A stretch of DNA of 64,000 nt from Okamejei kenojei (taxonomy: Eukaryota). The notes under the pieces are model-generated. The model made no database searches, was not told the DNA's origin, and saw nothing but the letters and a program-made list of their open reading frames with translations. Position numbers and translations under genes: made by a program. Shown one piece after another: positions 116 through 58,254 of this stretch. The stretch is from contig CM069164.1 of assembly GCA_035221665.1 (NCBI GenBank), positions 24,924,001-24,988,000 of the forward strand, read 5' to 3'. Position 1 is the stretch's first letter. Each line of letters starts with the position of its first letter.

Positions 116-642
116 GTGTTAAAGAAGGAACTGCCGATGCTGGAAAATCAAGGGTACACAAAATGCTGGAGAAACTCAGCAGGTGCAGCAGCATCGATGG
201 AGCGAAGGAGATAGGCAACGTTTCGGGCCAAAACCCTTCTTCAGACTGGCAAAAAAAAAAATGAGGTCAAGGAATGGTAGGGAAGTGTCGGAAATGATCC
301 AGGTGTATTTGAGTGCCGGATGGAAGTTGGTGGTGAAACGGATGAAGGCAGTCAGTTCTGTGTGGGTGCAGGAAGTGACACCAAAGCAGTCGTCGATGTA
401 ACGGAGGTAGATGTCGGGGATGAGGCCCTGGTACGCCATGAACAAGGATTGTTCGACGTACCCGACAAAGAGGCAGGCGTAGCTGGGGCCCATGTGTGTG
501 CCCATAGCTACGCCTTGTATTTGGATCGGGGATGGGGCCCTGATGGGTCTGAAGAAGGGTTTCGGCCCGAAACGTTGCCTATCTCCTTCGCTCCATAGAT
601 GCTGCTGCACCCACTGAGTTTCTCCAGCATTTTGTGTACCTT
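116..642 (-). mobile_element. Truncated Penelope-like retroelement: RT fragment between inverted terminal repeats that carry hammerhead motifs
   Basis: ORF 176..646 has the RT motifs QGVAMGT.MGP.YA.LF, RYIDD and LPFLDL. About 110 bp inverted repeats at ~150-246 and ~547-642. 12-bp direct repeat CCATTATAATAA at 104-115 and 643-654. Confidence 0.85.
542..583 (+). ncRNA. Minimal type I hammerhead ribozyme motif
   Basis: GATGGGT-CTGAAGA-A-GGG-TTTCGG-CCC-GAAA-C-GTT-GCCTATC. It has the CUGANGA and GAAA boxes, stem II, a 7-bp stem I with G-U pairs, a loopless palindromic stem III and an NUH (GUU) site. Confidence 0.7.
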
Positions 643-1231
643 CCATTATAATAACTTGATATTGTATTTTTCTTTTGAAATTATGTTGGGGAGAAAAAAA
701 GATTTGAAAATGTTACAGCGTGGAGATAATTCTGCAGGAAAGAGTTATTTTAGTTTTTTTACTTTTGTAGAAACAGGTGGACCCAATAGGATAATTTCTT
801 TGGCTTGAAACTGACTATAGATTGCAATGGCTTATGTTTGGAGCAGAAATTATCATTGCTGTCTGCAAGCGATTGTGGTGAAATGATTCATGCTCCCGAC
901 ATGTTTCTAGAACATACCGGGAGATGATTGTTTTGCTGTCGTGCCTGAAGGAGAATTCCTATAAAGTAATTAATTTATATCTAGGTCTGATGCTTCACTG
1001 CTTGTCCTTTTCTAAAACTTTGTGTTGAATTCGAGCTGGACCAATAAAATGTTTTTGATTTAAGCAGTGCTGTTTTTTTGTAGACCAAATGTGCACGATG
1101 AATAAACCAGCCTGTCACATGGTGGGAAAATTAAATAATGATGTTTTTTGGAGGTGCCGCAACGCCGTTCCAATGCATGCAAACACAAAACAAGCACGAG
1201 ATTTAAGCGTAGAAATAGTGAAACAATTTGG

Positions 1232-1518
1232 AGCAGCACAGCACCAGAGACCCGGGTTTGATCCTGCGTACCGGTGCTGTCTGTGCGGTGTTTGTATATC
1301 CTCCCTGTTACCATGTGCATTTTCTCCGGGTGCTCCGGTTTCCTCCCACATTCCAAAGACGTGCAGGTTTGTAGGTTTATTGGCTTCTGTAAATTGCCCC
1401 CTAGTGTATAGGATGTGAAGGTGGGATAACATAGAACATGTGTATGGGTGATTGATGGTCAATGTGGGCTCAGTGGGCCAAAGTGCTTGTTTCCACACTG
1501 AATCTCTAAAACTAATCT
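1232..1518 (+). mobile_element. tRNA-derived V-SINE/HE1-like SINE
   Basis: ccagagacccgggtttgatcctg (B-box-like), ggtttcctcccaca.tccaaagacgt core, CR1-like tail gtgggcc...tgtttcc...ctctaaaactaa. Confidence 0.85.
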
Positions 1519-2990
1519 ACAGAGTTTTTCTCTGTGGAGCGTCAATCATTTTGAGGTAATAATTTTTACTCTTAGCTTTACAGCATTCTTTAAACTTTTA
1601 TCATTATTGTGTTATGATAAAAGCTATAATCATCTAATGGATAATCTTGTACTCATTGGCAATAACTTTTAAAGTTGTATAAACTCTGGTTCCATTACTC
1701 CATCGCTGAGTTTGGTTACATTTTCCTACAGTCAAAAGCCAATATGAACTCATCATCTTTGGTATCTGGAATCTTGTGGCTATAGTTTCAGCTCCACATG
1801 TGATCCATTATAGTTACAAAGAAGATATTAATTATGATTTTTGCTGCAACTGTCCAAAGCCGAACACAGCTCGACAATGTTTATTAGTAACGAGGATAGA
1901 CCGAAGGATTATTTTTATTTGGTTGCTATGTGGATGGTCCTAACATGCCAACATTTATTGTCTATTACCAGTTGGCCTAAGAGGGCATCTATTGGGCTTT
2001 TGAACTGTACCACAAGATGACTTGCTATTTCGCTTCAGAGTATCATGGTTTAACCATCGATGGTGTAAAACACAATCATGTGCAGCTAGACGAGATCAAA
2101 ATGGTAAATCAGTATCCTTGAAGGAAATTGCTAAATGTATTGGCCGTTGTAATTGATTTTTCATTTATTAGCTTGGTGCCATTCATAAATAGCCAGATTT
2201 ATTGAAATTGATTTGCAAGTTGTCATGGATTTTGGTATTAGTGCCTCTGGATTACCAGTCCAATTTGTCAATCTAAACCCGCAGTCACACAATCACATTG
2301 CATTTCACTAGCTTCATCTTAAACACTAGCTTCATCTTTACACATTTATTTTTGTATTATGTTGGCAACATTCTGATAGTTAAGGGTAATTCAGAAATCC
2401 TTTTGCTCACTAATCATTGTTCTGAATTTGCACTTTAAATGTGGGCATTCCTGGTCAATAGGAATTGGATGTTGGATGTTGTTTATCATGAATCTGAAAA
2501 TCTTGCTGCTCAGACAAATGCCAGGTTCTATCATGTTCATGTATGCCAAAGAATAGATTAGATTACCAATAATAAAAGTTGCCTTTGGAATGACAATGGC
2601 ATTGATAGTTTGTCTGGATTTAACGTGTATGCCCCCCAGTGGTCTTCCCATGTGAAATAAAACATTTTAAAACGCTGACCAAGTGCAGATGTTTTTTTTT
2701 CATCTGTTATTTCTCGACAACATGAAATGGTGGCATACTTGGCTGGTGTTATAAACACCATAAATGCATCACATGTCAAAGTTCTAGGAGCGACAGTATG
2801 GGTTTGATTTGCATCAAATGAATCATAGTTTTAAATCTGTAGATTAAAGCCTATTTCAGATCATGCTTTGAAGATAGACATGTACAGGTTTATTTTCAGT
2901 GTACATCCTGGAGACAGGTGCCAGCCTTTGGTGACAGGAATCTACAGAATGACCTGCTATGTTTATGTTAGATCTGAAACTCTTAATGCT

Positions 2991-3279
2991 CCGAGATACA
3001 GCATGGAAACAGGACCTTTGGCCCACCGATTCTGTGCTGACCGATTACCCACACACTAGTTCTATCCTACACACTAGGGACAATTTCCCAAAGACAATTA
3101 ACCTACCAACCTGCACGTCTTTGGAATATGGGAGGAAACCGGAGCACCTGGAGAAAACCCACAAGGCACAGGGACAGCATACAAACTACGTAGTCGGCAC
3201 CCATAGTCGGAATTGAACCCAGGCCTCTGGCGCTGTAAGGCAGCGACTCTACTGCTGCACCACTGTGCAGCTGTACCTC
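2991..3279 (-). mobile_element. V-SINE/HE1-like SINE
   Basis: Reverse complement of the same consensus. Confidence 0.85.
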
Positions 3280-4589
3280 CAGAAAACATATCCTGAAACA
3301 TGCATATATGCTAAATTATGAATTTGCCCTCTGCTGTTAATATACCCTCTTAATTCTGAATGTTGTTATAATCTGGTTCTGCAAACGTTTTGGAGAATGG
3401 GTCCCATGAGATAAACCAGTGTGTTGTTCAGACCATGGTACTAGAGTCTAGGATGTCAATACTAGAGGGCTAGTTACTTTTTAAAATTCAAATTATGAAA
3501 GATCAATACATTTAAAGATGATTGATTATAACTTCTATTAAAATCAGTGAGCTAAGATTTCCTCAGGCTAGACTTTGATAAATGTATTTGTGATTTATTT
3601 ATTTCCTCCCTACACTCTAAATTCACCATGTACCTTGTTTCATCTCTACCTTCAAAAAAACCTCCTAATCTTCAACAATATCTTCAGATCCATTGTAATT
3701 CTGTTCCCGTTTGTTATTTTCTTTTTCTCCACCCGAGGCTATATGTAGCAATCTGTGACACCTTGCGGGAACACTATAGAAATATAGGTCTTCTGATCTT
3801 TTCATTATATTATTGCTTTCGTCTTGGGAAGGAGAGGGGAGGGGGTGGGGGAGAGGAGCAGAGGCGGGTGGGAAAGACAGAGTGAATTTATTTTTGAATT
3901 ACCAATTTAAAAAGTCATTCAGTAACTTGCTCTGTTTGCATGATCTAGTCGTTTCATGAGAGGCTGGAGCAGTGATGGTAACGGTATGTTACCAAAGAGC
4001 GGTCAGTCTCCTCTCCACTATTTACATTGAATAATTTAACTTCTTGATTGTTTCAAACAACATGGAACGTTCAAAAATCAAAGAATGCAAAAAGTCGGGT
4101 GCTTCAGTGAGCATGGATATCTTGGTGGTATCCTGCACGTTTACCTAACCTACTGAAATTTCCGTGGCAAGAGGACTATTTGTGAATGGTGCACGAAATA
4201 AAGAATACAAAAGCAATTTCAAGTACCATTGTATATTTATTTATTCCCTTCAAGGAGGACAATATACCATTTTGATCTCTTCTGACTACACATGATTGTA
4301 TTTTGCATTAGATGTTTAAATAATGGTACTCAGGGTGGAATAGCCAGTCATTTTGTTGTATTGTTTAGAAGCCGCATGGATGTCCTCTGAGGACAACTGG
4401 TAATATATGATAAATGTTGCCACATTAGGACCATCCAGATATCCAAAGCTTTGGTCCATCCTTGTATGAGTAAGCACCTTAAAGTCTCATTAGCCTTTGG
4501 ACAGTTGGAGTATATCATAATTTTTGTTGTTGTTGTCAATATAATGATTGAATATCATGATGATTTATCAAATCTATACCTGAGGAGTG

Positions 4590-4780
4590 TCTGAAGAAGG
4601 GTCCCAACTTGAAACGTCGCCTATTCATGACCTCCAGAGATGCTGCCTGACCTGAGTCTGAAGAAGGGTCTCAACCCGAAAACATCACCCATTCCTTCTC
4701 TCCAGAGATGTTGCTTGTCCTGCTGAGTTACTCCAGCTTTTTGAGTCTATGCTGCCTGGCCTGCCGCGTTACTCCAGCAC
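4590..4780 (+). mobile_element. Penelope-derived short element, tandem copies with two hammerhead-like cores
   Basis: ctgaagaagggtc...gaaacgtc at 4591 and ctgaagaagggtctcaacccgaaaacatc at 4658, each followed by ctccagagatg.tgc.tg.cctg. Confidence 0.75.
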
Positions 4781-5021
4781 TGTTTGGAGTGAAACACCCA
4801 TGTTTATTGGAGCTCACATCCACAGGAAACATTGATCACCGTGCAGAAGCGCATGATATTTCATCATGGAATGCAATGGCTAACCACGGGGCCAGATGGT
4901 GTTGGGGACGGAGCTTAATTGAACTTGACTGAAAAGCTGGGACAAGTTACAAATCATTACTAGGTATTAACAGAATCTGAAAGAGCAAAGGTAATGTTAG
5001 AGTTAAAGGTAATGTTAATGA

Positions 5022-5250
5022 GTTGTGAATTTGTGGAATTCCCTGCCACAGAGGGCAGTGGATGCCAAGTCACTGGATGGATTTAAGAGAGTTAGATAGA
5101 GCTTGAGAGGCTAGTGGAGTCAAGGGATATGGGGAGAAGGCAGGCACGGGCTATTGATTGGGGACGATTAGCCATGATCACAATGAATGGCGGTGCTGGC
5201 TCAAAGGGCCGAATGGCCTCCTCCTGCACCTATTTTCTATGTTTCTATGT
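5022..5250 (+). mobile_element. CR1 LINE extreme 3' fragment
   Basis: Near-identical to 14513-14730. Confidence 0.9.
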
Positions 5251-5558: not shown

Positions 5559-7232
5559 ATTCTTTAAATATTTGTCAGATTTATGGCATAATTCCCTATA
5601 TAGAGATGTTTAAAAGATGTTCTGAGATTGTTTCCTCGGAGTTTGATCATGCAACAAGCAAAACTAAGAGCAAACCCAAGATAAACACAAAGTGCTGGAG
5701 TAACTCAGTGGGTCAGCACTTTGTGTCTATCGTGGGTGTAAACCAGCTTCTGCAGTTCCTTTCCACACAGAGTGAACCTATCTGAATTTGGTCTTATTAC
5801 GCTCATATAATCCACAGCAATCCCCCTTAAAGCCCAAAGACTTGAATAAAAAGGCAATAAACAGATGTGGCAACTGCTTGTGAAAGGGAAATGTTATCCA
5901 AATGAGAAGATTTTTTTTATGGAAGCGATCTAACATGTGTATGCTCATCCTACAAATGGTGTCGGCCTGTTTTCGGAATTAGATTTGGTGGATTCACTCT
6001 GACGTCAATCTGAGTCGGTCAACACGCCTGTGAGCCAAAATGATGTGTATATTAACTGATCAAATGAAGGGCAGGCTGCGTGGCTGGACGACAAGACCAA
6101 GAGTTGATTCAATCAGTCTTTGAGTGTGTCCTTAATTCAGCAAGAATACACAAATGAAAGATATATTTTCTATAGTCCTATTCCACTGAGTTCATTACAA
6201 CATGTAAAAATAACAATGGTTCAGTTATGCTTTTGTTGCCATTTGTGTAAAGAGCAAACACACAGTGAAATTATTTCCTTACAAACAGTCCAATAGAGTA
6301 TTGCCATACCTACGCACATGTCCAATTAGCAACTTGTTTCTATCCCCAATGTAAGAGGCAAATACAGAACAAATACTGTTTAAAATCCTTCTCTGAGCCA
6401 TCCTGAATATTGTTCACACTACTACAAAGTGGTTCAGGATATGTGTCATTCTAACTAGAGTTTGTCAGTGTAACAAAATTGTAACTATGATCATTTTTTT
6501 TCTTTTGTTTTAATGCTAAGATGATTCTAAATATACTTAACCAGTTACTAACGCAGACTGTTCTTTGCCATTTCCCACTGTCTCCACAAGTGAAAATCTA
6601 TTAAAATAAGAATTTAAAAGCAAGAATGTTAAAAGACACACTTATTGTTGGAAATATCAATGAGGGCTACAGTAGGCAACGTAAGATTTCATCGCTGCTT
6701 AAAACAGACTTGAAATATTTGGGAGGAATTCCAATTTAACACTACTGCCAATTTCTAGGCAATTGTGTGGCTGTGGAGAAATGGATAATTTCATTGATTC
6801 TATTTCCTGAGGGAAGTTAGTTTTTTTTAAGTAGCACATTTCCTGGTCTCAGTGCACATTTACTGAATTGAATTTCATGACATTCCTCTAGATGTGAGCT
6901 TGTGCCCTCTGGATTATTGGATTGTTATTTTTTTTTTACCATTAAGATAATTTTATCAGAGTTTATTTTTTAACGTATATGCTTCACTGAAAATACAACT
7001 ATATTCTATTGTATCAAAATCACAGCGGTCATTATCACTATTCCACAGCTTTTTAAGCAGCTCCGTTTCACTCAGCGGTTAATCTTCTCTCTAACCTGAC
7101 AAAGCTTCGTACAAGTACTCTCAAATACATTCCAAGATCCACATCAGGTGGGATCTGTTTGTTACACTGGGGGAAACAGGGGTTTGAGTTCCTTTCAATG
7201 GATAATGAGTTCTATGGTAGCAGCGTAATTGG

Positions 7233-9355: not shown

Positions 9356-9987
9356 AATTGTGAGAGTCATAAACAGGGCTGACAGTCAGAACCTTTTTCT
9401 CTGTTTGGAAAAATTAAATACTAGAGGGCACAGCTTTAAGGTGAGAGGGGAAAGGTTGTATCCTTTGACAACCGCCTTCATGGTCTGTAACTCCACAAAT
9501 TTTGATATAGTCTGCAAACTTAGTAATCAACCATCTACATTCATATCAAACAATGAGGTACCAGTGCTGATCCCTGCAGAACACCACTGGACATAGACCT
9601 CCAGCCAGAACAATATCCTTCCACCACTGTCCTGTATCCTATGTCGAAGCCAGTTCTGAATACAGACTGCCATGTCAATAGACAATAAACAATAGGTGCA
9701 GGAGTAGGCCATTTGGCCCTTCGAGCCAGCACCGTCATTCAATGTGAGCATGGCTGATCATCCCTAATCAGTACCCCGTTCCTGCCTTCTCCCCATATCC
9801 CCTGACTCCGCTATTTTTAAGAGCCCTATCTAGCTCTCACTTGAAAGCATCCAGAGAACCTGCCTCCACCGCCCTCTGAGGCAGAGAATTTCACAGACTC
9901 ACCACTCTCTGTGAGAAAAAGTGTTTCCTCGTCTCCGTTCTAAATGGCTTACTCCTTATTCTTAAACTGTGGCCCCTAGTTCTGGAT
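9356..9987 (-). mobile_element. CR1 fragments: short plus piece, then two minus-strand pieces
   Basis: TRGHSFKV (plus), SGVLQGSALVP (minus) and a reversed CR1 3' end at 9680-9987. Confidence 0.85.
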
Positions 9988-10342
9988 GTTACCTATACAT
10001 CTTAATCTTCTGGTTCAGCCTACCATGAGGGAACCAGCTGCCATGCTGACCCTTGTGTAGACAACATCTACTGCCTACTTTCATCGATCACCTCTGTCAT
10101 CTTCTCAAAAAAAGAATTGAGTTTGCAAGACATGAACTGCCCTGCATAAAGTGACTCTGACTGTCCCTAATTAGTCTTTTTTCACCTAAATGTGAGTAAA
10201 AACCTATGTTGGGTTTCCAGCATCTGGAATTTATTGATTTCCATTGTGATAAAAGCATGCCTTTTCCATGCATTGACAACACGATGTCAGCCAGAGAGTC
10301 GGAAGTGGTTGTTGTGAGACATAATAGAACTAACAGCAAGTA

Positions 10343-10992
10343 CAGTGGCGCAGTGGTAGAGCTGCTGCCTCACAGCGCCAGAGACCCAAGTTCAATCCTG
10401 ACTACGGGTGCTGTCTTATAGTTTAGTTTGGAGATACAGCGCGGAAACATGCCCTTTCAGCCCACTGGGTCCGCTCCGGCCAGCGATCCCCACACATTAA
10501 CACTATCCTATACCCACTAGGGACAATTTTTACATTCACCAAGCCAATTAACCTACTTACCTGTACGTCTTTAGTGCGGGAGGAAACTGAAGATCTCAGA
10601 GAAAACCCACGCAGTTCACGGGGAAAACATCCAAACTCAATGCAGACAGCACCTGTAGTCAGGATCGAACCTGGGTCTCCGGCGCGGCATTCGTTGTGAG
10701 GCAGCAACTCTACCGCTACGCCACCTGGCCGCTGCGCCAACGTGTCTGTCCGGAGTTTGTACGTTCTCCCCTGCAATCATGTGAGTTTTCTCCGGGTGCT
10801 CTGGTTTCCTCCCACATTCCAAAGACGTGCAGGTTTTTAGGTTCTTGTAAGAGTGTATGACTGAGAAGAAGCTTTTGGCTTCTGTAAATTTCCTCTAGTG
10901 TGTAGGATGTGAATGCGGGATTACGCAGAACTAGTGATCGATGGTCGGTATGGACACGAACGGACTGTTTCATGCTGTATCTCTAAACTAAA
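10343..10992 (+). mobile_element. V-SINE with a second full-length antisense SINE nested at 10417-10742
   Basis: The host sequence resumes after the insert; TGTCT is duplicated at 10412-10416 and 10743-10747. Confidence 0.85.
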
Positions 10993-11719
10993 GCAAACCA
11001 TCCATTGTTTAGCAACTTTAATTTACACAGACAGAGTGGAAACAAATGGAAATTCCAGGAACTTCTGTAAGTAGCAAGTGTAACCTCTTCAGTAAAATGC
11101 AATATGGAGGATAGTTACAGAGGAGTAATGATATAAAGCAACTGGGAATACAGCAAATGCAGAACTGAGGGAGGAAAAAAGAGATCTCAGAGAGTCATAC
11201 AGCTGGAACAGTTTACAGTGAAAGACAAATGCCCTGGTAGTTCCCAGCCTTCTCTTAAAATTACCTGAACAGGCATTGTTGAATATTATGTCTGAAAGAC
11301 AATCTTAAACAAAGTGGCATGCTTCCAATGGAAAAACCTGGAACACCTCAGCAGTTAGGTAACCTCTAAAAGAGAAATTAAAATGAGTGGAGCAGAGCTT
11401 GCTGGTCTGGTCTTCCCACCTTGGATCACCACGCATGGTCACTCCGTGCCCCTATTTCAGTCCACCTTGATGGCCCAAAGCAAGACTCCAGTGGCACAAC
11501 CTACAGGAGCAGGACTCTCAGTCATACACTCATACACACTCCATCCCTGAATATGCCCTGAATTTTGTACAGTCCTGGAAAGGCTTTGAAGCTTTCAGAA
11601 TCATTTAATAGCTTTGTAGATCAAGGACAATTAAAATTGAACTTGAATATGTATAATTATCACAAATATTTTAATCATTGAGAATAAAAACGTGTAAGTA
11701 AACAGAAATAATTTCCGAA

Positions 11720-11975
11720 CAAGGGCCCCAACACAAAATGTCTCCTATCCATGTTCTCCGGGGATGCCGTCCAACCCATTGAGTTACTCCAGCTCAGTTT
11801 GCCTTTTTTTAGAAACAAAGAACTGCAGTTGCTGCTTTATACCACCGATAGACACAAAGTGCCTGAGTAACTCAGTGGGCCAGGTTTGGGTCGGGATCCA
11901 AAATACCACCCATCCTTTTTCTCCAGAACTGCTGCCTGACCAGCTGAGTTACTCCAGCATTTTGTGCCTATCATA
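11720..11975. mobile_element. Penelope-derived short element cluster (degenerate, partly inverted)
   Basis: gagttactccagc / gagtaactcag and gaactgcag motifs shared with the 116-642 termini. Confidence 0.65.
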
Positions 11976-12898: not shown

Positions 12899-13586
12899 AT
12901 ATCCTTTCATTGTATCGAGTCAGAATGTCTTTCTAACAAAATATTGCCTTTAACTCAAATCAGGTGGAAAGTTCAATTTTATGCACCAGTAATATTGGGC
13001 CAAGTTGGGCACAATCTGATGATCAAAGATGTTTTTTTTTTTTTTAAAAGCAATTCAAAAGGATTTATCCTTTTATAATTACTAAAAACAAATTTACATA
13101 TTCCTCAGGTAGATACCCAGAGTAGGTAAATTGAGGACCAGAGGACATAGGTTTAAGGTGAGGGGAAAAGATTTAATAGGAATCTGAGGGGCAACTTTTT
13201 CACATAAAGGGTGGTGGGCGTAGCAACGTTTAAGAATCAGTTAGACAGGTACATAGGATTGGTTTGGAGGGATACGAGCTAAACACAGGCAGGTAGGTAG
13301 GACTAGTGTAGCGGGGACATGTTGGCCAGTATAGGCAAATTGGGCCGAAGGGCCTGTTTCCACCTGTCTCAGTCTATGACTATATGCTATTCAGTGATAA
13401 AAGTAAATTAAATCATTTAAGATTAAGTAAAATGAAACACACCTGCTATTACATATTTATATTTTTGATCAGGTAAGCAACCAAATTCAAAACTATGGGT
13501 TTGCAGAACCATGGGTGGTATACAGCTGAGGTAATGAATCTGGCTCTCACTTCAGTTTGTTTGGGATCTGACCTCAGTCTCAAAGG

Positions 13587-16804: not shown

Positions 16805-17015
16805 TTCAAGGAACTGCAGATGCTGGAATCTCGAGTAAACCACATAGTACTGTAGTACCTCAGCAGGTCAGGCAGCATCTCTGGAAGATGTTAATGGGTG
16901 TAGTTTTGGGCCGAGACCTTTCCTCAGACTAAAGATGGGTCTTGACCGAATCTCTGCCCAGCATGTCTTCCAGAGATGCTGCCTGACTCGTTGAATTACG
17001 ACAGCACTTTGTTTT
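16805..17015. mobile_element. Penelope-derived short element, inverted pair
   Basis: aaggaactgcagatgctgg...cagact, then the inverted gggtcttgacc...gatgctgcctgac. Confidence 0.7.
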
Positions 17016-39888: not shown

Positions 39889-40088
39889 TTGAAGATGGAC
39901 ACAAAATGCTGGAGTAATTCAGCGGGACAGGCAACATCTCTGGACGGAAGGAATGGGTGACATTTTAGGTTGAGACGCTTCTACGAGAGGGAAAATTTTT
40001 TTTTTTTTTAAATTTTGTCCCGCTGAGTTACTCCAGCATTTTGTGTTTATCTTCAGTGTAAACCAGCATCTGCAGTTCCTTCCTGCAC
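39889..40088. mobile_element. Penelope-derived hairpin element with TSD
   Basis: Inverted arms acacaaaatgctggagtaa / ttactccagcattttgtgt. Flanking direct repeat ATTTAGTTACTC (39877-39888, 40089-40100). Confidence 0.8.
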
Positions 40089-40221
40089 ATTTAGTTACTC
40101 ATGACTCTCCAAACCAAAAGAATGCTATTTAACAAGATTTGACCAGCACCTCTGGACCCGTGTGCCTACAAAACAAAGTTCAGGGCATAAGATACAAGTC
40201 AGAGTTTGACCGGGGACTCAC

Positions 40222-41040: not shown

Positions 41041-41177
41041 TGTGTAGGAAGGAACTGCAGATGCCGGTTTAGATCAAAGATAGACGCAAAAAGCTGGAGT
41101 AACTCAGCGGGACAGGCAGCATCTCTGGAGAGAAGGAGTGGGTAACGTTTCGGGTCTCGATAGACCCTCCTTCAGAC
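41041..41177 (-). mobile_element. Penelope-derived short element with TSD
   Basis: Single ~137-bp unit flanked by ATAAAGAA (41033-41040, 41178-41185). Confidence 0.75.
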
Positions 41178-41596
41178 ATAAAGAAAGAATGTTCACATGG
41201 ACATTATCATGGCGTTATGGATTTACCTGTAGTTTTGTGAGCCACAACTTGATGTAGCAAAAGCAGTATAAAAATACCTCCTCTTCAAGTTGCACAAAGT
41301 GAGATGTAGCAACCATACTGATTATTTATTTTTCATACTAGAACAACATTTATACCACTAGATTAGGAAGCTGGCCTGATTAGCAAAGGAAAAGGCATGA
41401 TGTTATGAAGTAATAATTCACACTCGACAAATCAATAAGATTATTAAATGTTTGGAAGGATTTTAACTGTTGGAGGAAGATTTCTGAGGAAAGAGCACAT
41501 GTTGCTACCAGCAGCCTGTTACTCTCTAATTCTTACCAATCTAGCTTTCAGCTCTTCATCTCCATAAATGCATGCTTATCCCCAACTCTGGTTGTT

Positions 41597-44459: not shown

Positions 44460-44810
44460 TTAAGTGCTGGAGGAACTCAGCGGGTCAGGCAGCATCTGTG
44501 TAGGGAATGGACAGGCGAAGTTTGGGGTCAGGCAGCATCTGTGGACTGATGGAGTAGGGGGCAGAAAGTCGGAAAAGAGAGATGGGGAGGGACAAAGCCT
44601 GGCAAGTGATAGGTGGATACAGGTGAGGTGGGTTTGATTGACAGATTTGTGGAGTCAGTGACAAAGGACACAAAACTGTTCCAGCTACAGGGAGAAGAGG
44701 AGTGAAATGTAAAGTCAAAGGGAAGAATACAAGTGGAAGGAGACAGGGAAGGGATGGGGGGAAGGGGAGAGTTAAAGGAAAATGAAGGACCCAGGAATGG
44801 GAGATGAGTA
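44460..44810 (-). mobile_element. Penelope 3' fragment
   Basis: Same terminal motif and purine-rich tract as 30460-30870. Confidence 0.7.
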
Positions 44811-45248: not shown

Positions 45249-47604
45249 CTATGAAAGATAAAACGGTAATTTGTAGATATGTAACCGGTAACACCATTCG
45301 ACATGTCCATTTAGACCAACCTGTACGAAGCTTTGCGTTACATAACAATGTCACACGCACCTGCAACATGTGCAGATCATGGCTCAGAGTATTTAATGGT
45401 AATAATCCATTTCCCTTAAAGGTTAAAGGCAACTTGAGAGCAAAATGAGGAAATAATTTCACATTGACTAGCTCTCTGTTAGCCAATCAGAAATTGGACA
45501 GGAATAAGGCCAGCAAGTCTGTTTTCATTAAAACAAAAAAAATGAAGTAATGGTTTCAGAGATGTTTACGAATATGAAGAGATGTCAAGAAGGCCACTTG
45601 ATAATTTGCATAACATGAAAGCATTGACACATGGTTATGCATAAATGATTTAGGACAGAGAAGAACAAAACTACAAAGAGAGAATTATGAAATCGCAAAA
45701 GTCAGTGATTGAAGCAGAGACCAAGTCTGCATTTAAGTTCGATAAGAGGCTAGGGGAACGGGAAATAATGTAATTTGAAAACAACGCTGGCTGGTTATTG
45801 CTTGGGTGGAGGATGAACATTCATATGGATTGGCTGGGCTGTAATGGCAAATTGACCATACTGCAATTACTTCCCTTTGATACAAATGGCCTCAGTACAC
45901 ATGGATGGCTGTGGCACTTCCACTCTGGTTTTTTTTCAATTCCCTTCTGCTTAAAATTGTAAAGAGAGACCAGGATTATGCCCTACGCCGTCAAACGACT
46001 CCCAAGTCACTCGTACATTAAGAATAAACAGCGCAGTTAGGCACTGAAAGGAACGAGCACTGCATCATGTTATCATGACTCAGCATTTTTAGTCGAAGAA
46101 CAGAGGATGAAATAAGAAGATGTTTGCGTGACAAATTTTTGGCAGAACTGGGAAAATTCTGTTTTTTATTTTCCACATATCCTTGGTCTTCTGAATCTGA
46201 ATAAGAATATGGGCAAAGAACAGACGTACTTCGAATCCTGGCAGCCTTGGGTGTTCCAGACAATTATAAATTTTCAGCTGACCCAACGTTCCACTCCATG
46301 CGATTTAAATTATATGTCCGAAGATCACGCACTGCATGAATCTCATTTAAAAACATGAAAGAAATGTACCATGATTGCAAGGTTTGTAGATGGGATCCTT
46401 TCAGTTGGCAGAATGTCCTACTGTTGTGCAACTTGCCAAATATTTTACAATGGGTTAATTGTGACTCCAGAAATATTTCCATTGAGTATCCCAATTGTGT
46501 ACCAACAAAGGGATGTGTACATCACTCAGTCGCTGCTGGTACTGCAATTGCATTAAATATTTAATTTGTACGTTGCAATCAAAAACTATTGCACATTCCA
46601 GTACAAAGATCACCCATAATAATCTTTTGACGACTACCAGAGGGAAAATAAAATAAACAAATTAAACTACAATTTAATACAACCTCCTGGGACCTTTGAC
46701 TAGCTGTTAATAATTCAATTTTAAAAGCAAATGCTGCTCAGCAAGCGGTTTAAAGATTATCATTTGTCAGTCCATGTGAAATTCATGTACTGTACATGGT
46801 CTAATGACATTTCATCATGGATTCTATTTAACTTGCAAGGATAAACACTTCATAAAATAGTATCCGTCCTTCAAATTTACTAAGCAATCACAGCATGTTG
46901 TCACCGACGGGCCACCTTCAAAGATGAGCATGACAACACAAAAATCTTCACGCTTCATGTAGTATACGGTGACATCACTTTCATGTGCCTGCTACATGGA
47001 AAGACCATAGAATCAACAGCAAATTTTCCAATGATATGAACACACACTTAAAGCTTGTGACCATCGTTAGAATTTGAATGGTTCCTTCCTTAAACCTAAT
47101 CATTCCTCTGGACAATCATTTATAACCAGTTCAGCTGCAAAACTTTCTTCACCGCAGCTACCAAACAATTAGCAACTCCATGAACTTATCCCTTCTATCA
47201 ATATTTCACAAAGACCAATGTTAGAAATCTTCTGAAAATACATGTTACTACTTGCTGAAGCAGAATAACAGTGCATATCCTCAAGCACTTTGAGTCCTTT
47301 TTCGCAAACTAGTATCTGCAGTTCCTTGTTCCTACATCTTAAGAGTGCTTCCGGATACTTTTTCTGCTATATTTCTAAGAGTAACTGATCTAGAACATGC
47401 AGATAATGTCTTGATCTTTTCTCAATATGGTGAAAAAAACGTTCATACTCCAATCCCAAGATACATCCATGCTTTGTGTGAAACCTCTCTCATGTACTAA
47501 ATGATATTAGGGTATTTTAGGAGAAACTGATTACCTGACATGCAACACGTATCTGAAGAGGATGGTCTGAGCATCTTCTGACTTTTCATTTCTATTATTG
47601 GGTA

Positions 47605-47785
47605 TGTGTAGAAGGAATTGCAGATGTTGGTTTATACCAAAGATAGACACAAAATGCTGGAGTAACTCAGCGGGTCAGGCAACAACTTTGGGAAAATGGA
47701 ATAGGTGACACTTCAAGTCACCTATTCCTTTTCCCTAGAGATGTTGCCTGACCCGCTGAGTTACTCCAGCACTATGTGTCTATCC
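47605..47785. mobile_element. Penelope-derived hairpin element
   Basis: Near-perfect inverted arms gatagacaca...gctggagtaactcagcgggtcaggcaaca / tgttgcctgacccgctgagttactccagca...tgtgtctatc. Confidence 0.8.
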
Positions 47786-48110
47786 ATTAACGGGTATGAT
47801 GGACTCAGCAATGATAATGCAATAGTAAGAAACTAGATGTTCATGTGAGAGATGAACAATGTTGGGCAAATTTGCAAAATAATTGTTATTTTCCACTTGT
47901 AAGCCCATGCTTCAATTTTATTTTGTCTTGTATGCTTGAGAATCAATTGTTTCATTTGCTGACGATTTGCAAATGAAATTAAACTTTATGCAATCATAAG
48001 CAAACAACTTCAATTCAAACCTAATAATGGAAGGAAGCATTATAACCAGAGGATTGTATTCACTTCATGCAAGTACTGATGTATCTCAGAATTTTAAATA
48101 AAATGATTAC

Positions 48111-48344: not shown

Positions 48345-49184
48345 GCGCTGATCAACAATCCCCCATGCACTAGTTCTATCCTACACAATAGGGCCAATTT
48401 TGCATAAGCCAATTTAACTACAAACCAGCGAAGTGAGAGGAAACCGGTGCACCTGGAGAAAATGCACACGGTCACAGGGAGAACATACAAACTCCATCAG
48501 ACAGTACCCATAGTCAGGATCGAATCCCATGCCCTAGCCCTTTAAGGCAGCAACTCTACCATTGCACCACTGTGCTGCCCCAAATTGATTACAAGATTGG
48601 TAATGCTTGTAAATCAGATCCAGCTCAATGTTTAATTTCCAGTAAAGCTTTGCATTTTCAATCACAATTTGTGTCGCTTATTAATTAAAACTATAAAGGA
48701 ATATTCAGTGATGTGATTAGGGATTGACCAAAGTGGAAAACCACAATATGCAAAGAAGTGGAATTTTTGCAATAAAACAAACTGTTCCATTCAATATGAA
48801 GGCAAAACTAAATGGTAAACTTTAAGAAGTTGCTGGAAATGTACAATTTGAATTTGCTTTTACCATAATTTTCCCTGGTAATTTTAGAGTTTGGAGCGAA
48901 AAAACAGGCTCTTCGAACCACCGAGTTGACGTCGACCATCGATCACCTGTCCACTAGTTCCATATTCTTCCACTTTTGTATGCTACATTCTAGGAGCAAT
49001 GTACCAAAGCCAATTAACCTACAAACCTGCACGTCTTTCGAATGAGGGAGGAAACTGAAGCGCTCGGAGAAAACCGACACGGTCACAGGAAGAACGTACA
49101 AGCTCCACAAAGATAGCATCTGTAATCAGGACCAAACCCGGGTCTCTGGAGCTGTAAGACAGCAGCCCTACTGCTGTACCACCC
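48345..49184 (-). mobile_element. Two V-SINE copies (48345-48580 and 48885-49184)
   Basis: Reverse-complement consensus matches; the first copy lacks its 3' tail. Confidence 0.8.
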
Positions 49185-49690
49185 TAATTAAGCGGGGAAA
49201 TTCTGCTCACAGAACTTGCACCACACTAAGTCTTTCTGAATAATGAGACCATACATCAGAATACAGATTTCACATTTGCAAAGAAAGTAGCCAAAAGGAG
49301 TTAATTAGAAAACAAAATTACAAGCAATTAGTTGTAATGTTATTTTAAATGTGAATTTATGAGCTTTTATTAAGAAAACGCTACAAATATGTTTTAATTA
49401 TTTGATTTTGTTTTTGAACATTTCTAAATGTCAGGGGCAGTCAGAAAAATTGTGGCATAAGCCCTCAACACCATAGATGATTTAATCAATAGGGTCAGAT
49501 AATATTTCCAGCAAATTATCCTTGCATGTACATTTGTGTAAGTGCAAGGCAATTGGGTATCAATTCACAATTTTGATATCTTATTCTAATCTTCAACTTG
49601 CCAAAGAGTAGAAAAAAAATCAACTACCCTTTTTAGTATTTTGCTTTGCCTATTCTTAACAGCTTGGCCATTCCTGATAGTTTTCATGAA

Positions 49691-50275
49691 TTGTATTGTA
49701 TTGTATATCTTTATTATCATTTTTCTGAGTATTTACATACCCAGAGGAAAACGAAAAAGCGTTTCTCAACCAGTGTCCATTCAGTGTGTGGTAAAAAATA
49801 AATAGAAATAAAGAATAAAAGTACATATATCACGAGTTCCGATCGGCAGTGGCACGACAATGGCTCTGCTTCAGTGTGTCCAGGTTGGTGTGCAATACTT
49901 TGGCAGGGGGCAAAGTCCGTTTATCAGTCTAATTGCCTGCGGGAAGAAGCTGAGGAGCATCCTGCTGGTTTTGCAGCTGATGCTCCTGTACCTCTTCCCA
50001 GATGGCAGGATGGAGAATATGTGATACGATGGGTGGTAGGGGTCTTTGATGATGGAGATGGCTCTGCTAATACATCTCTTCCTGTATATGTCCAGCAATA
50101 AAGGGAGTGGAGCACCAATAATCCTGCTGGCGGTCTTCACAATCCTGTCCAGTTGGTGCCGTTCGTACGCCTTGCAGCTCCCGAACCAGGAGGTCATGCC
50201 GTAGGTTAATGCGCTCTCGATTGTCCCCCTATAAAAAGTTCGTAGGTGTGCAGTGGGGAGACCTGCTTTCCGTAA
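49691..50275 (-). mobile_element. Rex1/Babar-like LINE 3' end
   Basis: TFYRGTIES.LT..MTSWFG...IIKDPYHP...LPSGKRYRS...SFFPQAIRLIN, then a 3' UTR ending in a (tacaa)n tail. Confidence 0.85.
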
Positions 50276-50389
50276 TTAACCATATTGCTGTGGGTAGGAG
50301 CCACATATAGGCCAGAATAAGTTCGATGTCATATTTTCTTTCATAAAAGGCCATTAGTAAACCACATAGATTACTATGACAATTTAAGT

Positions 50390-50528
50390 TGCAGACTGCA
50401 TCAGACTGAAGAAGGGTCTCGACCCAAAACGTCGCCTATTACTTCATAGATTCTGCCTCACCCACTGAGTTTCTCCAGCTTTTTTGCCAACCTTCGATTT
50501 TCCCAGCATCTGCAGTTCTTTCTTAAAC
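50390..50528 (+). mobile_element. Penelope-derived short element with TSD
   Basis: ctgaagaagggtctcgacccaaaacgtc core (GAAA mutated). Flanked by ATGACAATTTAAGT (50376-50389, 50529-50542). Confidence 0.8.
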
Positions 50529-51689
50529 ATGACAATTTAAGTAGTCACTTTTGCTGACATTAATTTTGTTTCAGATTCCCATCATCTGCAGCATTTTAGT
50601 TTTATGCAGCTAATATTGCCATCTTTATATTTCAGATTTTGTTTAATTGAACTGAAACTCCTGTGCTCTGGATTAAAATTTGTAATACCAGTCTAGAGGA
50701 ATGACAACTAAGCAAATGTAGACTGCAATGAATTAAACTTGTATGTATACAAGCAAAATATATGTGACATTTACATTTCAATATGTCTGAAGAAGAGCTC
50801 TAACACAAAACATCTCCTATCCATGTTCTCCAGGGATGCTGCCTTACCGGCAAAATTACTCAAGCAATTTATGTCTCTAGTTTTTGGAAACCAGCATCTG
50901 CATTTCCTTTTTTCTACTGTTTGTACATTTCAATTAATATGTTAAATATTGGCCTAACCAGTTCAAAAAGAGATATTTAAAAAAGTGTATTACACAATAC
51001 ATTACTTTAAAAACACAGATAAACGACCAGCAATGAGGTTTATCTGGAAAGTTTTAAGAAAACTTCCTATTATGTGTAAAGAGGTCTGGCTGGCCAATAT
51101 TAAGTTGAATGAAATGAAATACTGAGACTGCTCTAGTTCAATATTAAAAAATACATTTCTCTGGGGCTTTCAATTTGCCAAGACGTTCTCCCCAATGACA
51201 ATGACAACTGAATACAGAGATGAATTGTTCCCTCGTGCAGTAGATAATAATCAAAACAACAAGGCCACCCACTGTTTTGCTGGATTCGTTCACACTGTAA
51301 TTGCGTTATCCTACAATTTTCCTCATGACTGTGTGTACAGAGCAAAATCTAAATGTAACCAATGAAGCATGTGGACAATTTAAAGAGGCCAATTGAAGAG
51401 ATATCCATTTGGAAGCTAGTGGCAAATAGTTCATACTTATTATTTTTATACAATTCTTTCTAGTGCGGTAATTGAAATAAAAACTAAAAGTGATATCATT
51501 TTGTATTAGAAAGCATTAAAGTCAACACCAGCACAGAAATCAAGAGTCTGGAGTATTTTATTATCACATGCATCAAAATGGAACAATGTAACTCTTACTG
51601 GCTGCCGCACAACAGATTCATAAGCACAGTACTCAATAGGTCATTGAGGTCTGGAACGAGACCTCAATTGAGAACTGGAAACACGTGAC

Positions 51690-51832: not shown

Positions 51833-53150
51833 TAAGGCAAGAAGGCTAAACAAAACATTTCATTGACTTTGCTTCCAAATACTAGGAAATTATATCATTC
51901 ATTTCAGCAGAAAGCAATTAACAGAGATCCCATGGAAGTTCAACGATGTCAACTTTCCACCTATTCCTGTCCCCTTCCATCTACATGTAAATAATCCTCT
52001 CAAAAGTATAAAATGTTGATAGGAAAAAAATCAATTGACATCTGTTGGTATTAATAAACATTCTATTATACCCATGAGATCGATAGTGTTTATAATATTC
52101 AAATTAAAATTGCTTTTGCAAATAATATATTATTTATTTTAAAAATTCATGTCTAACACAATTTAGTACGAGCTCTGTTATTGGTCTTACATGGAACAAA
52201 ATAGCGTGCCGTATAAATATAAATCAGGAAAAGTACTTCTGGGTAAACCTAAAACCAGTTAGCTCCTATTATACGCGAGACTAATTAAAGTTACCATCTG
52301 CTTCAACTTTGCATGCTAAGTTCCAATTTCCTGTTATTTCACATATGTTGTACGGTAATGGCACTTATTTTCATCAGGAGCTGGGACGTTTGTCAGACGT
52401 TATCTGGTTGTCATCATAGCCACCAGAATTAAGCAACGATGTTATCTATTCTAATAACTTTTGCTCTCATGTCTCTACTATGCATGGCTCAGAGCGTTTA
52501 ATGCAGATTTGCCACAAATCTGCTTTCAACATGCTTCATTTCTCACTTGTGTTATGAAATAAACAAACCTGACATAAAGACTGCTTCTCTGTGCAACAGA
52601 ATTCCACGTATACAAGTTTGTCCAGAATGCTTAACAAAATGAATAGATTGAAAATAAGGTCATGTTTGGTCTATTCTCAAATCCATTCACGTTTAAAACA
52701 TATATGCAGTCCTGCTTAAAGCATTTGTCCAATTTTATTCATTAGAATTATTAATTTGTTTTAAAACTGGCTTTCCAATGTTTTTAAACAAAGGGGCCTC
52801 TTACATAAAAGTGTTTCATAACCCAGGCACTACTAAATATTTATCCCACTTCTCCTTCCAGAAGCGTTCTTCTTTCTCCTCCTCCATTGCTGCTTTTTCA
52901 TTGTTTTTTATGCTCCCACCTGTGGAAACTACTCTCATTCCTCAATCATTTCCGCTACATAACGTGCACCATTTTATTGGGCGGCATAGATTGCTTTCCC
53001 ATATTGTATTCCCAATGTACCATTGTCTTGTACTTGCGACTTCTATTTCAGCTGCACACACTATCCCCACACTGCATAACACCTAAAGTCATACATCACA
53101 GAAGCCCCATCTAAGCTAGCCCTCATCCGGCCCATATCCTTCTAAATATC

Positions 53151-53291
53151 TTTTTTTTTTTTTAAAGAAGGAACTGCAGATGCTGGAGAATCGAGGGTAC
53201 ACAAAAAGCTGGAGAAACTCAGCGGGTGCAGCAGCATCTAAGGAGCGAAGGAGATAGGCGACGTTTCGGGTCGAGACCCTTCTTCAGACCC
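53151..53291 (-). mobile_element. Penelope-derived short element with TSD and A-rich tail
   Basis: Flanked by TCCTTCTAAATATC (53137-53150, 53292-53305), with a T13 run at the left end. A second, older plus-strand copy follows at ~53358-53470. Confidence 0.8.
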
Positions 53292-53297
53292 TCCTTC
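53247..53297 (-). ncRNA. Minimal hammerhead ribozyme motif, sense in a GALK2 intron
   Basis: Minus strand reads GAAGGAG-GGT-CTGAAGA-A-GGGTC-TC-GACCC-GAAA-C-GTC-GCC-TAT-CTCCTTC, with an intact core and a GUC cleavage triplet. Confidence 0.7.
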
Positions 53298-54291
53298 TAA
53301 ATATCCCCCTATTTCCTCTCTGACCCTTCCAGTTCTCTTTCCCCCAACCCCTGCAATGTCTAAAGAAGGATCCCAAGCCGAAACATCACCTATCCATGTT
53401 CTTCAGGGATTCTGCCTGACCCAATGAGTTACTCCAGCATTTGTGTCTTACCTTGGTAAACCAGCATCTCATTATCTCAACATTCCCACTAAATCTTCCC
53501 TATCCACGCACCTGTCCAAGTGCCTTTAAATGTTGTTACTGTACCCGTCTCAACTACCTCTTCAGGCACTTGTAGGTTTTTCATGCAAGATCTCAATATC
53601 ATAACAATGAATAAAACCTTTTTAAAGCAAAGTACTGTAAATGCTCGCTTCCTTTCTCCACAACTACTAACTGGCCTTCAGCGGATATCCAACATATTTC
53701 ACTTCCATTAAACAAATCTGCAGAATGTTACCTGATAATGTTTGTAAAATGGGGAGAGTGCTCATCATCTCTTTTACCTTTCCCCTTTGTCTATCTGAAA
53801 ATCTGTGGGTCAAAGAATGATCATTCACTTGTCTCATCCCGAAGAGAAAGAACAAATCTTGAGTCATTTCATCAAATGAGCCGAAGAATCTGCTGTAACC
53901 CAATTGTAAGACAGCAATATCAGTTTGGGGTGTTTTAATATTCTTCCAGTTTCTTCATTACAATTTAGAGTGCATATAAATGTTAAACTGTTTAAAGAAA
54001 ATTCATTCAAGACAGAACTATCACATACTTGACATCATTAGCAGAGCTTTAAATTGAGAGGGACAAAATTTACAGGAGGCATGTAGGGCAGGTTTTCTTA
54101 CAGAGGGTGTGAGTGCCTGGAAGGCAGTGCTGGTGGGTGGTGGTGGAGGAAGGTACACTAGTGGCATGGAAGAGGCTTTTGGATAAGTACGTGGATATAC
54201 AGAGAATGCAGGGGTATGCATTATGTGCAGGCAGGTAAAAGTTGGTCTTGGAATCATGTTCAGTATAGACCTTTTTAGTTTTTTAATTTTA

Positions 54292-55975: not shown

Positions 55976-56119
55976 CTTTGATAGGACCTTTCCATTCGCT
56001 ATCACGGTGATGAGACCTGCGCAGCAAACCAGTGCACTAGAGCTAGAAAGTCCTGAGCTCGCTGGGATCGTGCCATCAACCATACAGTTTATTCCACCGG
56101 AAACAGGGTTAAAATGCTC
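55976..56119 (-). CDS. GALK2: GALK2 internal coding exon (144 nt, phase 0/0): [48 protein letters not shown]
   Basis: GHMP-kinase ATP-binding loop PxxxGLSSS. CAG acceptor (plus ctg 56120-56122) and AAG|GTACT donor. Closely resembles vertebrate GALK2. Upstream exons were not found in the window. Confidence 0.96.
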
Positions 56120-56726
56120 CTGATGAAACAAAAATAGTGTATTTTTGTATTGTGCAGATAAAACATAAATCCTATTTCATGTCTGAAAGTTTTAGCATGC
56201 ATTTATTCTAAAGTATTTAATCACAATGTAGTGCAACAATGAGACATTTAATATTAAAGACCTGGCCGCACTTGTACAACGATCCACTGAGCCTGAATGT
56301 ACCTTCCGTAAACTCCACCAGTGAGAAATTATTTGCAGAAGCTATCCTTTCCTTATAAATTAGGCCCTGTAAAGCTTTGGCACCACATTTCTAACACGTG
56401 ACAGGAACATTTAGTCTCTGACCTTTCTCAAGCTGCAGAAACTTTTATCAAGTGTGGGATCAATGGCAAGCAAAGTGCTGTGAGCCTCAGCCTTTTTATT
56501 CAACATTATGTCCAAATCATTACTTCTGAGAAATACCCGCCCTCCCAATAATTCAGTTAATTATAACTTATCAAATGCTGCTCTCCAAGTACATTTACAA
56601 TCAAGTTTAATATTTTGATTGGCTCAGTGGTGCAACGATAGAACAGGAAAGGTCAAATTTCCCATCAGAGTCTTCTTAATTCACATCAGTCAGCGAAATG
56701 CTAGATGAATGGCAATTGTGCATACT

Positions 56727-57281
56727 TTATTGCGTACAGTTTTGGTCTCCTAATCTGAGAAAAGACATTCGTGCCATAGAGGGAGTACAGAGAAGGTTCA
56801 CCAGACTGATTCCTGGGATGGCACGACTTCCATATGAAGAAAGACTGGATAGACTCGGCTTGTACTCGCTGGAATTTAGAAGATTGAGGGGTGATCTCAT
56901 AGAGACCTACAAAATTCTTAAGGGGTTGGACAGGCTAGATGCAGGAAGATTGTTCCCGATGTTGGGGAAGTCCAGGGCAAGGGGTCACAGTTTAAGGATA
57001 AGGGGGAAGTCTTTTAGGACCGAGATGAGAAAATCGTTTTTCACACAGAGAGTGGTGAATCTGTGGAATTCTCTGCCACAGAAGGTAGTTGAGGCCAGTT
57101 CGTTGGCCATATTTAAGAGGGAGTTGGATGTGGCCCTTGTGGCTGAAGGGATCAGGGGGTATGGAGAGAAGGCAGGTACAGGATACTGAGTTGGATGATC
57201 AGCCATGATCATATTGAATGGCGTTGCAGGCTCGAAGGGCCGAATGGCCTGCTCCTGCACCTAATTTCTATTTTTCTATGC
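56727..57281 (+). mobile_element. CR1-clade LINE 3' end
   Basis: ORF 56698..57189 YCVQFWSP...[12 protein letters not shown]...FFTQRVVNLWNSLP, followed by the CR1 3' tail. Confidence 0.95.
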
Positions 57282-58254
57282 ATTAGAATTGGGAAAAATC
57301 GACTTCAGATTGCAAGATATGCATATCTTTGGGAACATTGGGCAAGGTCTACATTGGGATGAGCTGGATGCTAACAAAGTATGACCCACAGAGATGCAAG
57401 AAACTGTATATGTGGAGATTTGGAGCAAAACACAAAGTGCTTTGGAAACTCAACTGGTCAAGCAATATCCGTGGAGGAAATTGATAAGCAACGTTTTGGG
57501 TCAGGTTCTGAAGGGACAAGTCAAGGGTCTTGATCTGAAATGGCGTCAATCCGTTTCCCCCACAGATGCTGACTGATCTACAAATTATGAACATTTGAAA
57601 GAAAATCTGGAAAATGAAATTTAACACCAGGTGACAGAAGTAGCGAGTATGTAAGTGCAAGGAATACACTTTCCTAAAATATAACCCCTAATTTCCTTTC
57701 AACTACAGATGGCAATGGAGAGGGCAACAGAGAAAGCAAAGGGAGAGTCTCAAGTTTGTTCAAAAGTGTCACAATAGATATCACCAGATTAAACAAATTT
57801 AAATCATTGCTTTACGCTTGCTGAATCATTTTTTAAACGGTATTTAAACTGCATCTAGTAAGTACTGTTTTACAATTGCCAAGACAAAAATTGTGAAAGA
57901 TGGCAGGTCAGCCTACATGAAATATAAAATGCAGAATAATTATATGAAATTATCAAGGGAATATGAAGCAAAGACTGAAAAGGGCCTAGATGGAAAATGA
58001 GATACTGTTCCTCATCTAGTCTCAATAATTTCAGTTTTTCATAATTCGTGTTACCATTTTTAAGTATTTAACTAATAGTGATATATGAAATACTTCTCAG
58101 AAATTCAATGAAATCATATCTGCAGAACTCCTTTTGTCTGTAAGCTTGATAATGTTTGCAAATTCACTAATTTACCAAACTATTATCTATTCTGCACAAA
58201 TCAGTGTTCACAGCCCTAAAATGGTCCATAACTAATGTTTCCAATCATTGGGCA

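Follow-up and report, generated by a model that had tools for sequence, protein, structure and literature searches.

What is the short, hammerhead-bearing repeat that recurs through a 64-kb stretch of the Okamejei kenojei genome (assembly GCA_035221665.1, contig CM069164.1, positions 24,924,001 to 24,988,000; hereafter the window), and does it replicate as an element in its own right? The initial annotation of this stretch had described an abundant, retrozyme-like family of non-autonomous Penelope derivatives. Our analysis suggests that the copies are, on balance, probably short insertion products of autonomous Penelope-like elements (PLEs), which would belong to the Neptune clade and to at least four subfamilies, and not a separate replicon. 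The family is in this sense an ordinary one, since minimal hammerheads have been described in PLE termini throughout the animals; its one testable oddity is that many copies share a fixed 5' edge, at the hammerhead's first bases.

An nhmmer profile made from nine copies in the window itself matched 45 arms of a roughly 130-nt unit and found none in the reversed window; a sequence-only Infernal model likewise returned 45 matches. These arms formed 26 clusters, which manual curation resolved into 28 insertions, with a footprint of 4108 bp, or 6.4% of the window. The recurrence of the unit is thus confirmed, as is the proposal that its density is comparable to that of short interspersed elements (SINEs), the main SINE here having 18 matches (13 strong) over 4040 bp. 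The arms fall into about four groups with a median identity of 66% in the tree, and the sole firmly supported group consists of the arms at 116, 546, 53162 and 50404. This clade (support 100/97) places the solo arms 53162 and 50404 with the insertion at 116-642, which bears a reverse transcriptase (RT) fragment; arm 53162 is 91-94% identical to the two RT-linked arms. No coding frame is open through the unit in all subfamilies. A protein search with the open-frame translation of one solo gave 14 candidates, none of which scored and which added no outside sequence context, and a blastn comparison of one solo with phages gave no match. An origin from a tRNA-derived SINE or an antisense Pol III transcript was rejected: the A plus B box pattern occurs in one of 26 arms, in antisense, ARAGORN found no tRNA, and the pattern match in the profile consensus is shared by 3.7% of shuffles.

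Insertion boundaries show how these copies entered the genome. All five direct repeats claimed earlier were found, at 30872/31043 (16 bp), 50376/50529 and 53137/53292 (14 bp each), 39877/40089 (12 bp) and 41033/41178 (8 bp), the last being better read as a 9-bp repeat at 41035/41184 with a 4-bp slip. Additional target-site duplications (TSDs) were identified at 104/643 (12 bp, flanking 116-642), 50772/50924 (11 bp) and 33629/33834 (13 bp with one mismatch). Boundary repeats of at least 9 bp occur in eight of the 28 insertions, as compared with 0.5% of 600 random intervals, and are absent in the other 20. The four solos flanked by TSDs measure 139, 140, 141 and 141 bp and the TSD-flanked inverted pairs without coding sequence 155-200 bp. 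The copies at 30872 and 39877 do have the repeats attributed to them, but both are head-to-head inverted pairs and not solos. A discrete length class is therefore borne out, both by these four solos and by the peak of 5' ends described below. ATT lies at the tail junction, or within 3 nt of it, in six of nine flanked insertions, a hand count with no null run. Finally, the insertion at 33642 lies inside another copy and several others adjoin older copies, consistent with the known tendency of PLEs to insert into or next to existing copies (PMC6765202).

The unit comprises a minimal hammerhead followed by about 100 nt and ends in an optional tail of about 32 nt. Its 3' ends are bimodal, at consensus positions 90-103 (13 of 45 arms) and 122-133 (22 of 45), with four arms ending in between and six shorter; a CCAGCA-like motif occurs twice, spaced by about 30 nt, and one copy precedes each class. 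Head-to-head inverted pairs make up 13 of the 28 insertions, and the tail motif is present in exactly one arm in 11 of them, in neither arm in two and in both arms in none. This anatomy of an inverted pseudo-long terminal repeat (pLTR), an optional one-sided tail and TSDs is that of a textbook PLE. The solo and inverted copies of the initial annotation are thus present, while tandem arrays are not found beyond a single 68-bp dimer. Two local features also concern arm ends. At 53151-53163, a solo has an A-run at its 3' end, unlike its sister copies, which end AC-rich; the A-run probably arose by slippage. At 37090-37705, two divergent tailed arms have an additional 9-nt end in common and flank about 370 bp, whose translation resembles what we take to be a fragment of a CR1-like long interspersed element (LINE); this arrangement may reflect sequence captured between inverted pLTRs or a pair of independent insertions.

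The link to PLEs rests on coding and untranslated sequence. An open 88-aa RT fragment at 263-526 on the minus strand covers the region from QGVAMG through YIDD to FLDL, and its best protein matches are from Leucoraja (84%) and Amblyraja (77%), followed by rays and sharks, an order that by itself points to a skate or ray as the probable host. As the initial annotation had stated, arms of the unit stand at both ends of this insertion, which supports the PLE origin. A tblastn search with 15 named relatives matched the window at the RT fragment only, and Pfam returned no family for the fragment alone; its relatives have RVT_1 and GIY-YIG domains. A Cys-rich, Zn-finger-like linker between RT and endonuclease (EN) was seen by eye in the relatives P0006, P0014 and P0025, and the fragment in the window ends short of it. 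Such linkers are assigned to the Neptune and Nematis PLEs (PMC8557442), and from these sequences the source PLEs are probably Neptune elements. In P0025, a PLE protein of the shark Stegostoma, a GIY-YIG domain (292-331, under the Pfam cut-off) is followed by a Pro/Ser-rich stretch and then by a peptide corresponding to the hammerhead core in translation. At 34251-34368, the 3' untranslated region (UTR) and core of a copy align with the C-terminal end of P0025 (E 8e-6 in a set of 15 proteins), and the copies at 30461, 34251 and 44459 have 105-260 bp of pyrimidine-rich 3' UTR in common. Because of this order of GIY-YIG, UTR and core and the three UTR-sharing copies, we conclude that the unit is the 3' terminus of a PLE, located after GIY-YIG and the pyrimidine-rich 3' UTR. 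For 53306-53356, homology to the UTR lacks significance, its score being attained by 316, 356 and 21 of 500 shuffles. Within the insertion at 116-642, RT homology reaches the hammerhead edge at 236-275 via a T-run expansion, with neither GIY-YIG nor UTR in between, for which a template jump, a deletion and cryptic splicing are candidates. On the other side, a 20-nt filler at 527-545 separates the RT fragment from the inverted arm, and its last bases complete a 7-bp helix I.

The most distinctive property of the unit is where its copies begin. To locate 5' ends without profile-edge bias, we considered anchored arms, meaning those whose start is set by a TSD, a partner arm, a tandem junction or RT homology. 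Among 32 such arms, 12 start at consensus positions 1-5, three upstream and 17 spread over 9-80, and the 12 that start at the edge come from several subfamilies. Adding the four UTR-type copies (n = 36) gives 12, seven and 17, and all curated arms (n = 44, the 45 arms minus one internal duplication) give 15, seven and 22; 53306-53356 was scored as upstream in these counts despite its non-significant UTR homology, which biases against the edge peak. Accordingly, of the arms extending as far as the edge, about 63-80% end within 5 nt, where a loss of about 4-5% is expected (binomial P of 1e-12 to 1e-15, and about 1e-13 for the 32 anchored arms, for hand-curated starts and an interval set after viewing the data). 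Moreover, three of the four TSD-flanked solos begin within about 2 nt of the edge without a partner arm, and the arm linked to the RT fragment shows the same edge. No arm of the 44 starts at the cleavage site (positions 31-34) and two start at 29-30. The edge lies on the ribozyme's 5' side, where self-cleavage is unable to create an end. The UTR-type context at the edge is compatible with both an initiator (which we take to be YYANWYY) and a 3' splice site, as we presume these patterns to read. The copies give no sign of a spliced-exon origin of the edge: only 546 and 53290 share upstream G residues, the other arms share nothing there and no exon 1 common to them is visible, which makes a start site more likely than splicing.

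The hammerhead itself, as proposed in the initial annotation, was recovered with a minimal-hammerhead descriptor, which has seven matches in the window as compared with a mean of 0.03 in 100 dinucleotide shuffles. The unit also fits the published consensus for minimal hammerheads: U-rich, CUGANGAH, a G-C-closed helix II, GAAA, a palindromic CG and UH (PMC4209133, supplement 2). An Rfam scan at E up to 5 returned four chance matches and no hammerhead. Mean column identity is 0.94 in the core, 0.73 in its neighbours and 0.87 in conserved 3' blocks, so the core boxes are more conserved than adjoining bases, as had been predicted, with the core value partly inflated by the position of the first box at the hit edge. 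Helix II pairs in 85% of cells, and helix I, helix II and the 3' hairpin together are 83% paired versus 28-45% when slid. The suggested covariation in the stems did not appear, with two-sided change in two of 18 pairs, under the shuffled mean of 3.0, in decayed copies that give low power; RNAalifold on 17 arms gave no consensus structure. Helix I measures 7, 4, 4 and 3 bp in four of 15 arms and 0-2 bp in the other 11, reaching 7 bp only at 546, where the minimum-energy fold of 540-642 has hammerhead topology. The upstream strand of helix I is missing in most of the short copies, and these, as judged from sequence, are unlikely to self-cleave.

A mechanism for such copies is suggested by Poseidon_Ac (PAc) of Anolis. 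In PAc both target strands are nicked and extended, with ATT as the preferred cut, and reverse transcription starts at two internal sites that bound the tail, RNA to +172 being required and hammerhead cleavage dispensable (PMC11167929). By analogy, the short copies in the window would most likely be cDNAs primed at two internal start sites of the PLE and stopping at the 5' terminus of the RNA template. Specifically, an RT-GIY-YIG protein would make staggered nicks in AT-rich DNA, producing the 9-16-bp TSDs, and cDNA synthesis would start within the RNA at either of two fixed positions, near consensus 98 and 130. Target-primed reverse transcription may then proceed on one or both nicked strands, with the cDNA running off the RNA 5' end. 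A single primed nick would give a tailed solo, while two primed nicks, one per site, would yield two arms head to head, one with the tail and one without it, the junction lying where the cDNAs meet. The preferred cDNA end coincides with the first bases of the hammerhead, and longer templates, being rarer, would give the UTR-bearing copies. An RT halted by bound protein would also be compatible with this stop. The hammerhead would be a passenger in these short copies, most of which would probably never be copied again.

More tentatively, and with confidence somewhat short of even, we hypothesize that the Penelope transcript begins exactly at helix I and that priming at the two tail-bounding sites, close to the 5' end of the mRNA itself, yields fixed-length run-off cDNAs, which would be integrated directly as solos of about 135 bp or as pairs with and without a tail. 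These proposed products can be likened to retroviral strong-stop DNA; among the best 40 of 59 literature matches, none paired Penelope with strong-stop or twin priming. In Drosophila virilis Penelope, the promoter lies inside the pLTR and precedes a 75-bp intron by 46 bp (PMC2377424), and since this intron ends at helix I (PMC4209133), an RNA boundary at the hammerhead edge has a precedent. In a bolder form of the hypothesis, the edge would serve as a splice acceptor, like that of D. virilis Penelope, and an upstream exon would complete helix I (7 bp at 540-546), such that splicing would activate the ribozyme. Separately, an alignment in supplement 2 of PMC4209133 shows, by eye, many PLE hammerheads with a U-rich stretch and AG a few bases before the core, like the UTR-type copies here, and this feature is possibly a conserved splice acceptor.

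Several observations weigh against an origin of the copies as by-products of autonomous PLEs. A full-length element is absent from the window and a 5' pLTR followed by an open reading frame (ORF) was not seen there, while coding sequence in just one of the 28 insertions would suit non-autonomous masters too. The bases directly before the core vary (AG, GG, TG) without a consistent cap-derived G, the head-to-head junctions at 16930 and 40596 could reflect microhomology at a near-palindrome on the edge, and firm support is confined to two of 26 inner tree branches. In addition, PAc is a Poseidon element and the relatives found here have the Cys-rich linker, so the biochemistry would be borrowed across clades. 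The chief rival is a non-autonomous, SINE-like family, in which solos of about 135 bp would retain an internal promoter, be transcribed independently and be re-mobilised in trans by a PLE protein, as the initial annotation had proposed apart from its retrozyme component; we consider this reading unlikely and yet deserving of attention. The uniform length of the four TSD-flanked solos and the 27 insertions without coding sequence would suit it, trans-mobilisation of pLTR-bounded sequence is known (PMC3846280), and non-autonomous PLEs such as MRC1 have been described (PMC8557442). It would nevertheless need its own master for each of the groups, which share one edge at a median identity of 66%, and the RT-linked arm has the identical edge. 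Solos also share no visible non-PLE segment and, though they keep the tail, they are missing the RNA about 55 nt past the start site that PAc requires (PMC11167929). A separate non-autonomous family is thus unproven, with two solos grouping with the RT-bearing insertion, the sole coding copy available for comparison.

Random 5' truncation would instead leave the edge to palindrome microhomology, RT pausing or subfamily-specific UTRs missing in the profile, and we regard it as improbable. Heavy 5' truncation is known for PLEs (PMC8557442), the starts of more than half of the anchored arms (17 of 32) are indeed scattered over internal positions, the arms of two junctions overlap in the core-edge palindrome and UTR was recovered for one group only. 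However, anchored ends leave an unseen UTR no room, solos stop at the edge without a partner arm, and the excess of arms stopping there, set beside the 139-141-bp solos, rejects truncation alone, which the initial annotation had named as the result that would count against it. Its retrozyme-like label fared less well. A non-LTR retrozyme, whose tandem monomers would be cut by the hammerhead, circularised and reinserted, is very improbable: 27 of the 28 insertions contain no tandem of core-bearing units, the second core of the one 68-bp dimer (4589-4722) fails the hammerhead descriptor, no arm starts at the cleavage site, and the 13 head-to-head insertions have an arrangement not given by rolling-circle copying. 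The type I hammerhead core would agree with a retrozyme, and retrozymes do derive from PLE pLTRs and are present in one chondrichthyan (bioRxiv 10.64898/2026.07.22.740005), but the motif here is minimal and not canonical, 12 of 15 arms having a helix I of 0-3 bp and three having one of at least 4 bp.

Previous studies place the by-product reading in context. Minimal hammerheads number thousands per genome, mostly single with some opposite-strand pairs 100-700 bp apart, and have been ascribed to truncated PLEs (Cervera and de la Pena 2014, PMC4209133). Our unit shares their consensus and both arrangements; its helix II is 4 bp and its helix I for the most part 2-4 bp, and the fixed 5' edge is not mentioned in the consulted parts of that main text. 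One supplement to that study contains no shark, skate or chimaera terms. Our unit and PAc (Frangieh 2024, PMC11167929) both have two 3' end classes bounding a tail, an AC-rich end, AT-rich targets and both strands extended, and the distance from the tailed end to the start of helix II is about 120 nt here versus 111-118 nt there. PAc belongs to another clade, the relatives here having the Cys-rich RT-EN linker typical of Neptune (PMC11167929, PMC8557442); no ORF frame common to the subfamilies runs through our unit, and the portions of PMC11167929 consulted report no 5' edge. In the Penelope elements of Adineta vaga (Arkhipova 2013, PMC3846280), head-to-head inverted pLTRs, an optional tail (31 bp), TSDs, solo pLTRs and junction palindromes are likewise found, at low copy and with TSDs of 8-10 bp versus 9-16 bp here. 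That study favours self-priming on an antisense template and includes several solos without TSDs, while a later account draws the inverted pLTR with tail as the typical PLE structure (PMC8557442). Metazoan non-LTR retrozymes are defined by tandem canonical hammerhead units and circular RNA (PMC7229834) and tandem retrozymes have been linked to PLE pLTRs, one chondrichthyan included (Li, Clavereau and Pollet, bioRxiv 10.64898/2026.07.22.740005). They resemble our copies in being non-coding, with a type I hammerhead, a PLE pLTR origin and dispersed monomers; each of their tandem units has a complete hammerhead, in contrast to the one dimer here, and our copies end at PLE start sites and not at the cleavage site. 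The suggestion that the family is poorly described is accordingly weakened, as single and opposite-strand copies from truncated PLEs are in PMC4209133 and one chondrichthyan is in the 2026 preprint, whose chondrichthyan consensus sequences may include the unit itself. Among the matches listed, we found no literature on the unit in cartilaginous fishes beyond this preprint, which does not establish its absence from print.

The individual insertions are collected in Table 1. Other repeats also populate the window. A SINE of about 330 bp, presumably of HE1/V-SINE type, has 13 strong copies over 1237-62639 (e.g. 2977-3281, 14630-14958 and 48871-49197), including adjacent inverted copies at 10338-10996. 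LINE RT 3' fragments, which we take to be CR1-like, lie at 13538-14664 (RVT_1 at 13538-14161) and 56680-57280, with related pieces at 5020-5243, 9678-9986 and 38744-38836. A 134-aa open frame at 49871-50275 on the minus strand has no Pfam match and resembles, we assume, the C-terminus of another non-LTR RT. A 12-bp minisatellite (28878-29038), a (CA)n microsatellite (39444-39515) and a 194-base assembly gap (58255-58448) complete the list.

Table 1. Insertions of the hammerhead-bearing unit and associated PLE sequence in the window.
Positions	Strand	Feature	Evidence
104-654	-	PLE insertion 116-642 with 12-bp TSD (104-115, 643-654), composed of a tailed arm, the RT fragment and an inverted arm without tail
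116-247	-	Tailed arm, hammerhead core to tail; 5' edge of core abuts RT fragment
248-526	-	Penelope-like RT fragment, sole PLE coding sequence in window	tblastn
540-642	+	Inverted tail-less arm, sole 7-bp helix I
4588-4787	+	Partial tandem: 68-bp dimer (4589-4722) with two hammerhead-like cores, plus third fragment
5676-5767	.	Very short head-to-head pair without hammerhead
11715-11974	.	Solo arm (11715, +) adjoining head-to-head pair (11811-11974)
16800-17017	.	Head-to-head pair, both arms starting at core edge
19387-19574	.	Head-to-head pair
23448-23627	+	Two direct arms, decayed
27919-28025	+	Solo arm, decayed; no TSD in boundary test
30461-30851	-	Ordinary 5'-truncated copy comprising the unit and ~260 bp of pyrimidine-rich 3' UTR
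30872-31058	.	Head-to-head pair, insert 155 bp, TSD 16 bp
33497-33846	.	Older head-to-head pair enclosing younger pair (33642-33833, 13-bp TSD)
34251-34464	+	Copy with ~105 bp UTR; UTR and core align to P0025 C-terminus
37090-37232	-	Tailed arm, decayed
37603-37705	+	Tailed arm, decayed
39877-40100	.	Head-to-head pair, insert 200 bp, TSD 12 bp
40467-40707	.	Head-to-head pair
41035-41192	-	TSD-flanked solo, insert 140 bp
43418-43592	.	Head-to-head pair
44459-44808	-	Copy with ~250 bp UTR and internal duplication
47278-47333	+	3' fragment alone
47594-47798	.	Head-to-head pair, insert 179 bp, imperfect 13-bp flanking repeat (7 bp exact)
50376-50542	+	TSD-flanked solo, insert 139 bp, TSD 14 bp; start ~10-14 nt upstream of core
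50772-50934	+	TSD-flanked solo, insert 141 bp, TSD 11 bp
53137-53305	-	TSD-flanked solo, insert 141 bp, TSD 14 bp, 3' A-run; clade of 116-642
53357-53481	+	Arm preceded by pyrimidine-rich sequence without significant UTR homology
57392-57581	.	Head-to-head pair, decayed

At 28 insertions per 64 kb, a density equal to that of the main SINE, the unit matters for repeat annotation in skate and ray genomes. More generally, a direct readout of the PLE reaction is offered by so large a number of short copies that are bounded by TSDs, end at two fixed 3' positions and have a single preferred 5' end, and the fixed 5' edge makes a clear prediction for the PLE transcription start. The formation of inverted pLTRs and one-sided tails has been called an open question (PMC8557442, PMC11167929). 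If run-off cDNAs are indeed integrated as we propose, they would account for inverted pLTRs, for tails on one side only and for the thousands of solitary minimal hammerheads in animal genomes, with no need of a non-autonomous element.

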